Positions 10,575 to 18,241 of a stretch of DNA of 64,000 bases are shown piece by piece. Numbering within the stretch: position 1 is the stretch's first letter; every line of letters begins with the position of its first letter. A model generated the notes under the pieces. The model did no database searches and was not told the origin of the DNA. It saw only the letters and a list, made by a program, of their open reading frames with translations. Position numbers and translations under genes: made by a program. This DNA comes from an uncultured delta proteobacterium (lineage in GTDB: Bacteria > Myxococcota > Myxococcia > SLRQ01): contig CAVSGM010000002.1 of assembly GCA_963727485.1 (NCBI GenBank), positions 198,854 to 262,853 of the forward strand, written 5' to 3'.

Positions 10575-10961
10575 GTGATCACCTGTCCCGTCTGCGAGCA
10601 TCCCCAGGCCCAGGGCACCGAGTGCGACGTCTGCGGCCGTCGCTTCCCCTCGGACCTGGTCCAGTCCGCCGGCCACGTCGATCCGCCCGCCGAGGTGGTC
10701 CCCGGCCTCGAGCTCACGGCGGTGGTGGCCCCCTCGGCGCCGACCCCGGCCCTGGCCGCCAACGCCCCCTGCGTCTGGTGCGGCCACGTCCAGGCCGAGG
10801 GCCGGATTCTGCGACCGCTGCGGGATGCAGCGCCACCGGGGAGAGCGCCTCGAGACGTCCGCGGCGGCCCCTGGCGACGAGGCGCCCGTGTGCCCCGAGT
10901 GCGGCCACCCCGCCGAAGGGACGCGGTGCCGCAACTGCGGGGGCCGGCTCCCGGAGGGCGC

Positions 10962-10965: not shown

Positions 10966-12281
<1,316 letters not shown>

Positions 12282-13118
12282 TCGGCGCCGGGTCGGGATT
12301 CCGCTTCGGGAACCTGGGGGTAGGGCGACAGCCTCGCGTGTCACGTGATGGGTGTTCGGTATGTCCGGTCGTCACCGGACGCCGGGTGTGGCGTGCGGCG
12401 ACGCCGGAGGACGCTGCGGGGGCACCGGCGCCGGCGCGGGCGATCATCGTGCCGGCGGACGCCCCTTCCCCGATCCCCGGCCGACGGGATCGCGGCCGAC
12501 GGACCGGACGCCGGGTCTCCGCCGTGGACCCCTTCGGGCACCACGTGAGCGACGCCGCACAAGCCACGATTTCGTCGTGGAAATCACCCTCGGGGCGAGG
12601 GGGTGTCGAGGGGGCCGCCACGCGCTGTCGGCGACGGGACGGGTGCCCCCCCTGTCGCAGCGGACGGGCGGCGCCACGGTGGCGTCACCCGTGGGGGCCC
12701 ACAACGCCGGGGTGCATCTCGACCCACATTTCAAAGCACGAGAACGTGCTCCTCGCCGTCGTGACGCGGCGCACCCGATCACTTCGCGTCACCGGTTCGA
12801 CACCGCCCGCACCGCGTCTGCGCGCTGTCGTGCCCATTTTTCGCGGGCTGAAATGCGGTCGCTTGACGGGTCGGATCCGAGCGTGCTTGTGTGGCCGACG
12901 CTTTGAGGTCACGAGGGGGCAATCGTCGGATGCAGGATGGGGCAACGTCGCCTTTGGCGGCGTCCGGCGGGGGCCACCGAAGGGCCGAGGGGCAGCGGTC
13001 GTGCGGGGGGCGTGCGACACGCTAGGGCTGTGCCGCAACGTGCAGGTGCGGTCCCCGTGATTCCTGATCCTGTTCCCGTTCCAGTTCCTGTTGCAGCGGA
13101 AGTTCCCGGAGGTCGGTC

Positions 13119-16100
13119 ATGCGCATCACCCGTCGGTTCACGGTCGAGGGGGGCTCGCCCTACGACGCGTTCGAGTTCGTCGCGCGTACCAGCGAGATCC
13201 GCGATCCAGGCGGCAAGGTCGTCTTCCGGGCCGAGGACGTCCTGGTCCCCGAGCACTGGTCGCAGGTGGCCACCGACATCCTGGCCCAGAAGTACCTGCG
13301 CAAGGCCGGCGTCCCCGCGGTGGTGAAGCCCGTCGCCGAGAAGGGCGTCCCCAGGTGGCTCCAGCGCCGGGCGCCCGATGCCAAGGCCCTCGAGGCCCTC
13401 CCCGAGGCCGAGCGCCTCGGCCCCGAGCGCGACGCCCGGCAGGCCTTCGACCGCCTCGCCGGCACCTGGACCTACTGGGGCCACAAGCACGGGTACTTCG
13501 ACGGCGAGGACGACGCCCAGGCCTTCTACGACGAGCTGCGGTGGATGCTGGCGCGGCAGATGTGCGCCCCCAACTCGCCCCAGTGGTTCAACACCGGCCT
13601 CCACTGGGCCTACGGCATCGACGGGCCGCCCCAGGGCCACTGGTACGCCGACCCCAAGACCGGCGAGCTCAAGCGCTCCGAGAGCGCCTACGAGCACCCC
13701 CAGCCCCACGCCTGCTTCATCCAGTCCGTCGGCGACGACCTGGTGAGCGAGGGGGGCATCATGGACCTGTGGACCCGGGAGGCGCGCCTGTTCAAGTACG
13801 GCTCCGGGACCGGGACCAACTTCTCGGCGCTCCGGGGCGAGGGCGAGCCGCTCTCCGGCGGCGGGCGCAGCAGCGGCCTGATGAGCTTCCTCAAGATCGG
13901 CGACCGCGCCGCCGGGGCCATCAAGAGCGGCGGCACCACCCGCCGGGCCGCCAAGATGGTCTGCCTCGACCTCGACCACCCGGACATCGAGCAGTTCGTG
14001 GACTGGAAGGTCAACGAGGAGCAGAAGGTCGCCGCCCTGGTGGCCGGCTCCAAGGCCTGCTCGGTGAACCTCACCGCGGTCATGGCCGCCTGCCACACCG
14101 ACACCGTCGCCGGCGACGACCGCTTCGATCCCGAGGCCAACGCGGTCCTCAAGGACGCCGTCCGCGCCGCCCGGAAGGCGTACGTCCCCGCCGCCTACAT
14201 CCAGCGCTGCATCCAGCTCGCCCGCCAGGGCTTCAGCGGGGTGGAGTTCCCGGTCTACGACACCGACTGGCAGTCCGAGGCCTACGTCACCGTCGCCGGC
14301 CAGAACTCCAACAACTCGGTGCGCATCCCCGACGCCTTCATGAAGGCGGTCCTCGAGGACGGCAAGTGGGTCCTCACCCGGCGCACCGACGGCAAGGCGG
14401 CCAAGACCCTCGAGGCGCGCGACCTCTGGGAGCGCATCGCCTCGGCGGCCTGGAGCTGCGCCGACCCGGGCCTCCAGTTCGACTCCACCATCAACGCCTG
14501 GCACACCTGCCGCCCCGACGGGCGGATCAAGGCGTCGAACCCCTGCTCCGAGTACATGTTCCTCGACGACACGGCCTGCAACCTGGCGTCGGTGAACCTC
14601 ATGACCCTGGTCGACGCCGAGGGCAACTTCGACGTCGAGGGGTTCCGCCACGCCATCGAGGTGTGGACGGTGGTCCTCGAGGTCAGCGTCCTCATGGCCC
14701 AGTACCCGAGCCGGGCCATCGCCGAGCGCTCCTACTGGTACCGGACCCTGGGGCTCGGCTACGCCAACCTCGGCGCGGTGCTCATGCGCCTCGGGCTCCC
14801 CTACGACAGCGACGCCGGCCGGGCCTTCTGCGGGGCGGTGAGCGCCGTCCTCACCGGCACCGCCTACGCCACCAGCGCCCGGATGGCCGCCGAGCTCGGG
14901 GCCTTCCCCCGCTACGACGACAACGCCGAGGCGATGCTCCGGGTCATCCGCAACCACCGGCGCGCCGCCTACGCCGCCGCCGACGCCGACTACGAGGACC
15001 TCGAGGTTCCGCCGGTGGGCCTCGACGCCCGCCGCGCCCCCAAGGCGCTCCTCTCCGCCGCGCGCAACGCCTGGGACGAGGCCCTCGAGCTCGGCGAGGC
15101 CCACGGCTTCCGCAACGCCCAGGCCACCGTGATCGCCCCCACCGGGACCATCGGCCTGGTGATGGACTGCGACACCACCGGCATCGAGCCCGACTTCGCC
15201 CTGGTGAAGTTCAAGAAGCTCGCCGGCGGCGGGTACTTCAAGATCATCAACCAGTCGGTGCCCCCGGCCCTCACGCGCCTCGGGTACTCCGACGCCCAGG
15301 TCGCCGACATCGTCGCCTACGTGAAGGGCACCGGCACCCTGAAGGGCGCCCCGGGGGTGAGCCAGGCCGCCCTCAAGGAGAAGGGCTTCACCGACGCCGA
15401 CCTCGCCCGGGTCGACCAGGCCCTGGCGTCGGCCTTCGACATCACCTTCGCCTTCAACCGCTGGACCCTCGGCGACGCGCTGGTCACCGGCCGCCTCGGC
15501 GTCCCCGAGGACGAGCTGGCCCGGCCCGACTTCGACCTCCTCGCCTGGCTCGGCTTCGAGGCCGAGGACGTCCGGGCCGCCTCGGACCACGCCTGTGGGA
15601 CCATGACCATCGAGGGGGCGCCGCACCTCGACGAGGCGCACCTGCCCATCTTCGACTGCGCCAACCGGTGCGGCCGCTACGGCAAGCGCTTCATCGCCGC
15701 CGACGCGCACATCAAGATGATGTCCGTGGCCCAGCCGTTCATCTCCGGCGCCATCAGCAAGACCATCAACATGCCCGCCGAGGCCAGCGTCGAGGACGTG
15801 AAGCACGGCTACCTGCTGTCCTGGCGCCTGGGGCTCAAGGCCATCGCCCTCTACCGCGACGGCTCCAAGCTCTCCCAGCCCCTCTCGGCCACCTGGGCCC
15901 TCGAGGACGTGGACGACGAGGCGCTCCCGGTGGCGGCCGTGGCCTCGCCCGAGGAGGCCGCCGAGCGCATCGTCCTACGCTACCTCGCCCGGCGCCACCG
16001 CCTCCCACACCGGCGCGGCGGCTACACCCAGAAGGCCATCGTGGGCGCCCACAAGGTCTACCTGCGCACCGGCGAGTACCAGGACGGGCAGCTCGGCGAG

Positions 16101-16813: not shown

Positions 16814-17612
16814 ATGGCCGACGACAGACCCCGGATCCGCGTGGAGCGCCGCCACCAGGGCAAGGTCGCCCTGGTGGTCGTCGATTGCCCCGAGGTCCAC
16901 AACGCCCTGGACCTGGCGGCCATGGACCAGCTCGCCGCCGCGGTCGCCGGGCTCGGCCGGGACGGCGACCTGTTGGCGGTGGTGGTCACCGGCGCCGGCG
17001 AGAAGGCCTTCGTCTCCGGGGGTGATTCTCAAGGACCTCCACGGGGTCCGGGAGCACGCCGCCGCCCTGCGCATGGCCGAGACCATGGGCGGGGCGCTCG
17101 CGGGCCTCTCGGCCCTCCCGGTGCCGGTCATCGCCGCGGTCAACGGCCACGCCTTCGGCGGCGGGTGCGAGCTCGCCGTGGCCTGCGACTACCGGATCGC
17201 CGGCGACCACGTGCGCTTCGGGTTCCGGGCGGTGAAGTTCGGGGTCATGGGCGGGTGGGGCGGCACCACCCGGCTCCTGCGGATCATCGGCCGCTCCCGG
17301 GCGCTGAAGCTCCTGGTCACCGGCGAGGACCTCGACGCCGCCACCGCCCTGGACATCGGCCTCGTCGACGAGGTGGTCCCCCAGGGCGCGGTCCTCGAGC
17401 GGGCGCTGGCCTTCGCCTCGGAGATTGCCGCCGGCTCGCCGCTGGCGGTCAGGGCCACCAAGGAGGCCCTCCACGCCGCCGAGGACCTCGACTTCGACGA
17501 CGCCCGGGCCCTGGAGGCCGAGCGCTTCGCCGAGACCTGGGTGAGCGAGGACCACGCCGAGGCCCTGGCCGCCTTCCGCGCCGGAAGGCCCCCGAAGTGG
17601 CGGGGGCGGTGA
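16814..17612 (+). CDS. Enoyl-CoA hydratase/isomerase (crotonase) family protein, frame change near 17025-17040
   Basis: N-term KVALVVVDCPEVHNALD...VVTGAGEKAFVSGGD in ORF 16814 frame; continuation LKDLHGV...AAVNGHAFGGGCELAVACDYRIA... in ORF 16776..17612 frame; sequence reads ggtgattctc where ggtgatctc is expected. Confidence 0.8.
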
Positions 17613-18241
17613 TGGCGAGGCGGGGACGCTTCATCGCCCTCGAGGGCCTCGACGGGGCCGGGACCACCACCCAGGCCGCCCTCCTCGTCGAGCGGCTCCG
17701 GGCCGCGGGCCGGGAGGCCCACCTCACCCGGGAGCCCTCCGACGGCCCCCTGGGGGTGCTCATCCGCCAGATCCTCAAGGGGCGCCTGGTCGCCGCCGGG
17801 GCCCAGCCGGTGGACGCCGCGGCGGTGGCGCTCCTCTTCGCCGCCGACCGCCTGGAGCACCTCCAGAGCGAGATTGTCCCCCGCCTCGCCGCCGGGGTGG
17901 ACGTGGTCTCGGACCGGTACCTGGCAAGCTCGCTGGCCTACCAGGGCGCCGAGCTCGACCTCGCCTGGGTCGCCGGGATCAACGCCCGGGCCCGGGCCCC
18001 GGACGTCACCGTCTTCCTCGAGGTCACGCCCAGGGTGGCCGCCGCCCGGCGCACCGCCCGGGGCCAGGACGCCGAGCGCTTCGAGGCCACGGCCCTCCAG
18101 CGGAAGATCCACCGCACCTACGAGAAGGTGCTGGCGGCCGGCGAGGGGGTGGGGCGCCTGGTGCGGATCGACGGCGCCCTCGACGTCGACGCCGTCGCCG
18201 AGGCGGTGTGGGCGGGGGTGAAGCCCGGCAGGGGTCGGTGA
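17612..18241 (+). CDS. tmk: Thymidylate kinase
   Basis: MARRGRFIALEGLDGAGTTTQAALLVERL...DRYLASSLAYQG; start overlaps the crotonase stop. Confidence 0.85.
   Translation: MARRGRFIALEGLDGAGTTTQAALLVERLRAAGREAHLTREPSDGPLGVLIRQILKGRLVAAGAQPVDAAAVALLFAADRLEHLQSEIVPRLAAGVDVVSDRYLASSLAYQGAELDLAWVAGINARARAPDVTVFLEVTPRVAAARRTARGQDAERFEATALQRKIHRTYEKVLAAGEGVGRLVRIDGALDVDAVAEAVWAGVKPGRGR

Follow-up and report, generated by a model that had tools for sequence, protein, structure and literature searches.

A long non-coding leader without NrdR boxes or a recognizable riboswitch precedes the class II ribonucleotide reductase gene of an uncultured Myxococcota lineage

We analyzed a stretch of 64,000 nucleotides (nt) from an uncultured delta proteobacterium of the phylum Myxococcota (hereafter the window; GenBank contig CAVSGM010000002.1, ENA metagenome contig ERZ25039500 contig_8292; 72% G+C), focusing on the leader of nrdJ, which encodes a class II ribonucleotide reductase (RNR), an essential enzyme. 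The thrC–nrdJ gap spans 12282-13118 and measures 837 bp, in line with the leader of about 830 bp that a preliminary description of this DNA had reported. The genes and translation signals at its borders are as follows.

12279-12281: stop codon of thrC (PALP domain, threonine-synthase-like), the upstream neighbor of the gap
13108-13112, plus strand: ribosome-binding site GGAGG of nrdJ, as read from the sequence
13119-13121, plus strand: ATG of nrdJ (class II RNR, 1206 amino acids; Pfam Ribonuc_red_2_N, Ribonuc_red_lgC and TSCPD)

Related loci were collected by a genome scan, protein searches and a scan of metagenome DNA. The lineage is sparsely sampled, and five related loci were obtained; NrdJ identities to the window are given for each.

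L082: 95%; from the same sample as the window; the sister locus
L085 (= L083, L084): 76%; three contigs with identical leaders
L086: 76%
L087: 74%
L167: 76% over the first 160 amino acids; 88% identical to L087 over 249 amino acids

Because the leaders of L083, L084 and L085 are identical, they add no extra information to one another. The related loci have 629-915 bp without a called gene upstream of nrdJ, except for one call of a 45-amino-acid open reading frame (ORF) in L085, which we considered spurious. The long upstream region is thus retained in all six loci, although the upstream neighbor gene differs. At the ribosome-binding site, CCGGAGG is kept in the window, L082, L087 and L167, and L086 has GTGGAGG.

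The length of the gap is a real feature and not a product of chance, since no codon-position G+C periodicity was detected across the 837 bp in a GC-frame plot, the ORFs of the gap have no Pfam match, and 1-nt and 2-nt indels shift the frame between the window and L082. Whichever of the three frames is read, substitutions relative to L082 fall evenly on the codon positions, and 11-13 codon changes are non-synonymous versus 3-5 synonymous. The leader therefore shows neither the codon periodicity nor the synonymous excess of a protein-coding gene or upstream ORF.

We then searched the leader for known regulatory elements. The preliminary description had found neither a convincing cobalamin riboswitch nor a canonical NrdR box, and dedicated scans confirmed both absences. 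An Rfam scan, at gathering as well as permissive E-value thresholds, assigned no family to the leader or to the related leaders. No cobalamin riboswitch (RF00174, clan CL00101) was found at the gathering threshold, nor at E <= 10 on 12200-13250, and the Cobalamin and AdoCbl-variant models had no match in the related leaders. Rfam 15 returned only noise, namely Xoo5 at 17.7 bits (gathering score 50, E = 0.76) and microRNA and snoRNA models. As a positive control, the same tool found a cobalamin riboswitch in L064 (Gracilimonas halophila; 252-467, 93 bits), which lies about 2.5 kb upstream of nrdJ and presumably controls a gene other than nrdJ.

An NrdR operator consists of two 16-bp boxes separated by a linker of 15-16 bp (PMC13584703). 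We built a matrix for the box, a 16-bp partial palindrome (acaCwAtATaTwGtgt), from 75 boxes upstream of other nrdJ genes (training median, 17.6 bits). Of the five leaders scored, that of the window reached -3.7 bits at best, and those of L082 and L085-L087 did not exceed 2.0 bits; with a single box already absent, the leader has no tandem pair. Boxes of 17.7-21.8 bits were present in the nrdJ leaders of the outgroups Plesiocystis (L003) and a Myxococcota metagenome-assembled genome (MAG; L027), the latter in tandem, and three outgroups from the metagenome scan (L099, L092 and L109) carry tandem boxes about 160-220 nt before the nrdJ ATG. Judged from these sequences, the expected NrdR operator is specifically missing in this lineage. 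In a tblastn search with an E. coli NrdR query, no nrdR gene was matched in the 64-kb window or the fetched loci. Tested against both families, the leader belongs to neither the NrdR operators nor the cobalamin riboswitches.

In the outgroup leaders L099, L109, L092 (about -500 to -160 from the nrdJ ATG), L027 and L009, DnaA-box-like motifs (TGTGGATAA, TTTTCCACAGG and TTGTCCACAGG) lie just upstream of the tandem NrdR boxes, and RNR genes of these outgroups may be under joint DnaA and NrdR control. DnaA boxes in the window leader, sought by eye, gave only 6-7/9 matches, whereas outgroups have good ones. Other candidates read by eye were also rejected: a sigma-54 promoter, whose GG/GC elements are not kept in L082, L087 and L167; LexA boxes of the Myxococcus or alphaproteobacterial type, which misfit in spacing and sequence; and a G-quadruplex, one G-run of which is missing in L082. 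GGA sites of the CsrA type carry little weight, GGA being common in G-rich sequence. A repeat or mobile-element family was dismissed, as the window contains no further copies.

Identities between the window and the sister locus L082 were as follows.

Third codon positions: 80-90%
Another intergenic region: 76%
Leader upstream of 12860: about 70%, with many indels
12860-12945: 83/86 identical, 96.5%
12986-13118: 87%

The most highly conserved segment, 12860-12945, has the appearance of a promoter continued into a transcript, and the features read in it are listed below.

12860-12945, plus strand: constrained core, comprising a promoter-like region and the first ~48 nt of the putative 5′ untranslated region (5′UTR)
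12863-12868, plus strand: TTGACG, -35-like hexamer of the putative nrdJ promoter (5/6 match to TTGACA)
12886-12892, plus strand: weak -10 candidates CTTGTG/TTGTGT
12899-12910, plus strand: CGCTTTGAGGTC, in the constrained core
12913-12922, plus strand: GAGGGGGCAA, in the constrained core
12936-12945, plus strand: GATGGGGCAA, in the constrained core

All six related leaders contain TTGAY upstream of the ATG, at a distance of 221-256 nt (401 nt in L086), and at a fixed offset from it lies a conserved block, CGCTTTGAGG...GAKGGGGG. Four leaders (window, L082, L087 and L167) carry the 10-mer CGCTTTGAGG without mismatch, 35-36 nt from TTGAY, and the 1.4 Mb of fetched loci contain one other match. 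The leaders of the pair L087 and L167 are 40-58% identical outside their shared footprints, which consist of TTGATC, CGCTTTGAGG 35 nt later and then GATGGGGG. In L085 and L086, which lack the 10-mer, TTGAC is accompanied by a G-rich GGAGG/GGGG segment 46-47 nt downstream. From this arrangement we infer a promoter with its -35 element at 12863, which would start transcription at about 12897-12900 and give a 5′UTR of about 220 nt. A weak terminator-like site (12820-12833 followed by T5; 5 pairs; 0.4 such sites in shuffles) lies upstream of the putative promoter, and no intrinsic terminator, that is, a GC-rich hairpin with a U-run, was found between 12898 and the ATG. In L167, a long hairpin (GGGAAUCGAUGC...GCAUCGCCUUUCCC) followed by U6 was observed within the putative 5′UTR (479-541) and resembles a terminator or attenuator, for which it is a better candidate than the site in the window; the sister L087 lacks it and shows a gap of 25 nt there in the alignment.

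The remainder of the putative 5′UTR contains two predicted hairpins.

12994-13023, plus strand: hairpin AGCG-GTCGTGCG-GGGGG-CGTGCGAC-A-CGCT
13025-13056, plus strand: second hairpin (GGGCTGTGCC...GGTGCGGTCC), whose 3′ arm carries TGCGGTCCCC (13047-13056)

All five substitutions that distinguish the first hairpin from its counterpart in L082 preserve pairing: one U-A pair is changed to A-U on both sides, two wobble pairs become Watson-Crick pairs, and one G-C becomes G-U. Because of its G-U pairs, this hairpin is specific to the plus strand. The stem of the second hairpin is unchanged in L082, and its apical loop is variable and contains an indel. The window, L087, L167 and L085 carry the motif of its 3′ arm (TGCSGTCCCC, or TGCSGTCCCY across lineages) at a distance of 38-72 nt upstream of the ATG; the L082 version is one C shorter (TGCGGTCCC at -66). 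Structure predictions for these five leaders place the motif each time in a local hairpin, as its 3′ arm. A fold predicted from the window sequence only loses 4 pairs in L082, versus 11.7 ± 2.3 under random substitution (P = 0.0006), and is thus preserved; the structure-conservation test on the minus strand was not significant. Two further ideas about the RNA were tried and rejected. If the pyrimidine tract sequestered the ribosome-binding site, positions -16..+3 should have a lower unpaired probability than with shuffled upstream sequence, and none of ten leaders showed this. A long-range helix between a 5′ G-run and the C-run of TGCSGTCCCC is attractive by eye and finds no support in pair probabilities.

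Upstream of the putative promoter, the gap consists of a poorly conserved spacer followed by a cluster of short motifs.

12282-12708: GC-rich, fast-evolving non-coding spacer 3′ of thrC, with short blocks conserved in L082 (e.g. 12529-12589)
12709-12793: cluster of cis-elements, a candidate module of transcription-factor sites, containing TGCATCTCGACC, AGCACGAGAACG, an inverted repeat and AGTGATCGG
12713-12724: TGCATCTCGACC
12735-12746: AGCACGAGAACG, overlapping a palindrome at 12736-12749
12761-12768 and 12785-12792: inverted repeat GTGACGCG-N16-CGCGTCAC
12775-12783, minus strand: AGTGATCGG

Within the spacer, 12285-12700 is about 70% identical to L082 with 44 gap columns. A hairpin GACGC(G)CAAC-N8-GTTGCGTC followed by T5-6, probably the thrC terminator, was observed in L087 (2982-3013, about 145 nt 3′ of thrC) and in L167 (98-127; the contig ends short of thrC), and the window and L082 have no comparably clear terminator 3′ of thrC.

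The motifs of the cluster that are common to the relatives are AGTGATCGG, GCWTCTCG and TGCACGAGAACG, the last of which overlaps the palindrome. A AGTGATCGG motif lies 88-156 nt upstream of TTGAY in every lineage, in either orientation, with an extra copy at -388 in L087, and is often fused to GCTTCTCG (L085, L087 and L167). Exact GTGATCGG occurs six times in the six related leaders (once each in the window, on the minus strand, L085 and L167, and three times in L087), versus 0.37 copies expected from the background of all loci; L082 and L086 have variants with one mismatch. This enrichment is absent among 94 other nrdJ leaders. Matches of the GAAGTGATCGGCTTCT type are common to L085, L167 and L086. 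Window positions 12709-12758 align with L087 3277-3230 on the opposite strand (E = 5e-4), and the 11-mer GCACGAGAACG is exact in the window, in L167 (plus strand, 9 nt before TTGATC) and in L087 (minus strand). Independence of orientation and variable spacing argue for DNA sites recognized by a protein rather than for RNA structure, and the upstream motifs most likely bind a transcription factor. Perfect inverted repeats of 8-9 bp built on GTGACG...CGTCAC were also observed in three of the leaders, with spacers of 16 nt in the window (12761-12792), 10 nt in L085 (1441-1468) and 20 nt in L086 (3103-3138); the repeat lies 70 nt upstream of the -35-like hexamer in the window and overlaps the putative promoter in L085 and L086.

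The preliminary description had singled out two other features, a palindrome and a run of GTTCC repeats, as possible regulator sites or an RNA element. Both were located where it had placed them.

12736-12749: palindrome GCACG-AGAA-CGTGC (6-bp arms if A12735 and T12750 are counted); left arm and spacer within the conserved 11-mer, symmetry incidental
13061-13092, plus strand: pyrimidine-/T-rich hexamer array GATTCCT GATCCT GTTCCC GTTCCA GTTCCT GTT, which contains GTTCC three times (GTTCCC-GTTCCA-GTTCCT-GTT, 13072-13092)

The palindrome is unremarkable, being one of seven inverted repeats with 6-bp arms and 3-8-nt loops in the leader, a number at chance level (dinucleotide shuffles give 3.5 ± 2.2). 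The sister locus L082 (95% NrdJ identity) has lost the palindromy and reads GCACCAGATCGCC, and the region is not palindromic in L087 or L167 either. Only the left arm and spacer, (T)GCACGAGAACG, recur in the distant relatives, forward in L167 and inverted in L087. The palindrome thus overlaps a genuinely recurrent element, of which the 11-mer is kept and the symmetry is not.

The GTTCC array exists but stands out only marginally. Three copies of a 5-mer at a period of 5-9 are present in 2.8% of shuffles, and Tandem Repeats Finder reported head-to-tail copies of TTCCTG at 13061-13092 (period 6, 5.3 copies, 80% matches), whose score of 43 falls short of the default threshold, 50. The array of L082 has exactly one unit fewer and adjoins a 1-nt indel, and the distant relatives have a single GTTCCC or none and no array. 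T makes up 32-33% of the tract, whereas the window averages 14% and has its 99th percentile at 26%. The array behaves like a slippage-prone spacer rather than a conserved site. As a pyrimidine-rich, G-poor stretch before the ribosome-binding site is also found in outgroup Myxococcota-like nrdJ leaders, composition may count more than the repeat. A tandem repeat of another kind was seen in L050 (a Planctomycetia MAG), about 330-400 nt upstream of nrdJ (locus ~2630-2710), where a 20-nt unit, AAAGAAGTGCTGTCGAGATC, is present in at least 4 copies adjoining a run of N.

Conservation in orthologous nrdJ leaders, one of the checks that the preliminary description had proposed, gave a divided answer: 12860-12945, short motifs and one hairpin are kept, and most of the leader, the palindromy and the array are not. 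As for the two features themselves, neither palindromy nor the array proved to be a conserved, informative character, and what stood was the overlap of the palindrome with the recurrent 11-mer GCACGAGAACG. Both are largely incidental, and the constraint lies elsewhere, in 12860-12945, AGTGATCGG, GCATCTCG and the hairpin at 12994-13023. The broader view, that the gap is a long leader of the class II RNR gene with a regulatory and not a coding function, fared well, in the light of the coding tests, the long gaps shared among the loci and the constrained blocks.

Taken together, these findings favor, with a probability of roughly 0.55, a reading of the gap as a lineage-specific non-coding promoter, operator module and long 5′UTR that replaces NrdR control. 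The rapidly evolving spacer (12282-12708) would be followed by the motif cluster at 12709-12793 (GCATCTCG, GCACGAGAACG and AGTGATCGG), which would act independently of orientation and most likely be bound by a transcription factor. The promoter, with the -35-like TTGACG at 12863, would direct transcription from near 12898 and yield a G-rich 5′UTR of ~220 nt, with its first ~48 nt almost invariant and at least one selectively maintained hairpin (12994-13023); the pyrimidine-rich tract with its slippage-prone hexamer array would come directly before the ribosome-binding site. Since the module occupies the place of the tandem NrdR boxes of the outgroups, NrdR has probably given way to another regulator in the control of the class II RNR, possibly with a contribution at the mRNA level. 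Only tentatively do we propose the fuller version, in which a new operator set (AGTGATCGG, GCWTCTCG and TGCACGAGAACG) bound by another factor is combined with a conserved RNA element of the 5′ leader (CGCUUUGAGG...GAKGGGGG, the hairpins and UGCSGUCCCC) that acts on nrdJ mRNA.

Several observations weigh against this reading. The evidence is comparative and comes from six related sequences of four deep lineages. Sharing of k-mers among the four lineages is not above chance, and in an nhmmer search the whole leader aligned only to L082; most of the leader therefore evolves fast, and the case for single motifs rests on arguments from position and enrichment. The closest relative, L082, differs from the 11-mer GCACGAGAACG at two positions (GCACCAGATCG). 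A scan for consensus sigma-70 promoters (TTGACA, TATAAT, 16-18-bp spacer) found none in the region, and no lineage has a good -10 candidate (2-3/6 matches). At the RNA level, folding energies of the putative 5′UTR are no better than those of shuffles on either strand (z from -1.2 to +1.2), the reciprocal structure-conservation test was not significant (P = 0.30), and predicted folds differ among the relatives. The negative search for nrdR, finally, covers the 64-kb window and the fetched loci.

Some of the same observations would suit an ordinary promoter in an unusually long neutral spacer, with the palindrome, the repeats and most shared motifs arising by chance in GC-rich DNA: the palindrome is no more frequent than chance predicts, the lineages share k-mers only as often as expected, identity even to L082 is only ~70% over most of the leader, and 1-2 exact 11-mers are expected, from a composition estimate, between two GC-rich leaders of ~800 nt. 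We consider this unlikely, because 83/86 identity at 12860-12945 is incompatible with neutrality at a background of ~72%, CGCTTTGAGG sits at a fixed offset in four leaders versus one match in 1.4 Mb elsewhere, GTGATCGG is enriched 16-fold in this lineage only, and the long upstream region is kept in all six loci despite rearranged neighbors. Alternatively, the ~220-nt 5′UTR might itself be a structured RNA of a new kind that acts in cis, either like a riboswitch or by binding a protein. It would sense a metabolite, such as a deoxynucleotide or B12 status, and control nrdJ translation or mRNA stability, with three GGGGCA copies and the GUUCC repeats or the C-run as alternative pairing partners. 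The nearly invariant 5′ end, the compensatory plus-strand changes in the hairpin at 12994-13023, the TGCSGTCCCC motif in five leaders (one C shorter in L082) and the ability of GGGGCA to pair with UGUUCC, as read from the sequence, are consistent with such an RNA, and long regulatory leaders of RNR genes are known (PMC12528414). We nevertheless regard it as distinctly unlikely. Apart from the missing Rfam match, the folding-energy z-scores of -1.2 to +1.2 and the unsupported G-run/C-run pairing, predicted architectures differ between relatives and the interior of the 5′UTR cannot be aligned, whereas a riboswitch aptamer normally has a conserved interior; the ribosome-binding site is not sequestered (0.53 unpaired in the window versus 0.38 in shuffles, other leaders being neutral).

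Translation through the leader, as a small upstream ORF, a leader peptide or an N-terminal extension of NrdJ, was considered from ATG 12930, from ATG 12937 or as a Pro-Val reading of the GTTCC array. The ORFs from 12930 (31 codons) and 12937 are open, the former is equally long in L082, and by-eye reading of the raw sequences of L087 and L167 revealed ORFs that span the UTR and end at or near the nrdJ ATG; such open frames are, however, expected at 72% GC. With substitutions spread evenly over codon positions, 11-13 non-synonymous versus 3-5 synonymous changes, frames broken by 1-nt and 2-nt indels between sister loci, and a Pfam N-terminal domain that begins at residue 32 counted from ATG 13119, this explanation is very improbable. 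Hardly credible at all is the idea that standard models miss an NrdR operator of degenerate or atypical form, or a cobalamin riboswitch that has diverged. CCCAC at 12723-12727 does resemble the left half of Myxococcota NrdR boxes (CCCACTACATG...), and the palindrome ends in CAC...GTG; its structure, however, is CAC-N6-GTG with a GC-containing center, whereas the 16-bp NrdR box is CAC-N8-GTG with an AT center. The best matrix score of -3.7 bits and the lack of the second box that the definition requires at a 15-16-bp linker (PMC13584703) further argue against an operator, as does the absence of any Cobalamin or AdoCbl-variant match, even at E <= 10, against a riboswitch.

In the surroundings of the leader, an enoyl-CoA-hydratase-like gene and a thymidylate kinase gene lie downstream of nrdJ (window 16814-18241). 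The order nrdJ, enoyl-CoA-hydratase-like gene, thymidylate kinase is found in the window, L082, L083 and L086 and not in L087; in L083, a gene with an adenylate/guanylate-cyclase domain is inserted between nrdJ and the other two. Between recG and thrC (~10575-10960), a small double-zinc-ribbon gene is frameshifted in the window relative to L082: residues 1-78 and 78-127 of the 129-amino-acid L082 protein match in two different frames. It is either a pseudogene or the result of an assembly indel, and 1-nt homopolymer differences in this contig may accordingly be technical.

The only RNR gene visible in this region lacks NrdR boxes and yet has a long, partly constrained leader with motifs of its own, which points to an alternative way of matching the supply of deoxynucleoside triphosphates to demand. 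Were the motifs to bind a new regulator, or the leader to act as an RNA sensor, this would be a second solution to a well-studied control problem and a handle on gene regulation in an uncultured group. At present the result consists of candidate sites in six metagenomic sequences, mainly of interest to specialists in RNR and Myxococcota.

Several known systems invite comparison. Short tandem repeats subject to slipped-strand changes in bacterial promoters and leaders resemble the hexamer array next to the ribosome-binding site, which differs by exactly one unit between the closest genomes; here, however, there are 3-5 imperfect units, and the change of a unit alters no reading frame or promoter spacer. 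Riboswitches that control RNR genes include cobalamin riboswitches upstream of B12-independent RNRs (e.g. Streptomyces nrdABS) and the 2′-deoxyguanosine riboswitch of Mesoplasma florum. The putative likeness is control of RNR at the RNA level from a structured 5′ leader, but the present leader matches no Rfam model and has no conserved aptamer-like interior, and cobalamin riboswitches normally repress B12-independent isozymes, not nrdJ. In Pseudomonas aeruginosa, the nrdAB promoter has NrdR and AlgR sites and mapped transcription start sites, and a 5′UTR of 408-411 nt lowers transcript level and stability by an unidentified mechanism (PMC12528414). That leader, like the one described here, is unusually long for an RNR operon and contains no recognizable riboswitch; it belongs to another RNR class and phylum and has no sequence similarity to ours, for which the start site is a prediction. 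NrdR represses RNR in about three quarters of bacteria (PMC13584703), and NrdR-box promoters control RNR operons (PMC13584703, PMC9110341). The five clade leaders scored differ from these in having no box, and AGTGATCGG, GCWTCTCG, TGCACGAGAACG and CGCTTTGAGG are unrelated to it in sequence, with leader motifs in either orientation and at variable distances. What the two arrangements have in common is a conserved cis-module at or upstream of an RNR promoter, ~160-300 nt before the ATG, at a place where Myxococcota-like outgroup nrdJ genes carry NrdR boxes, and presumably the same role.

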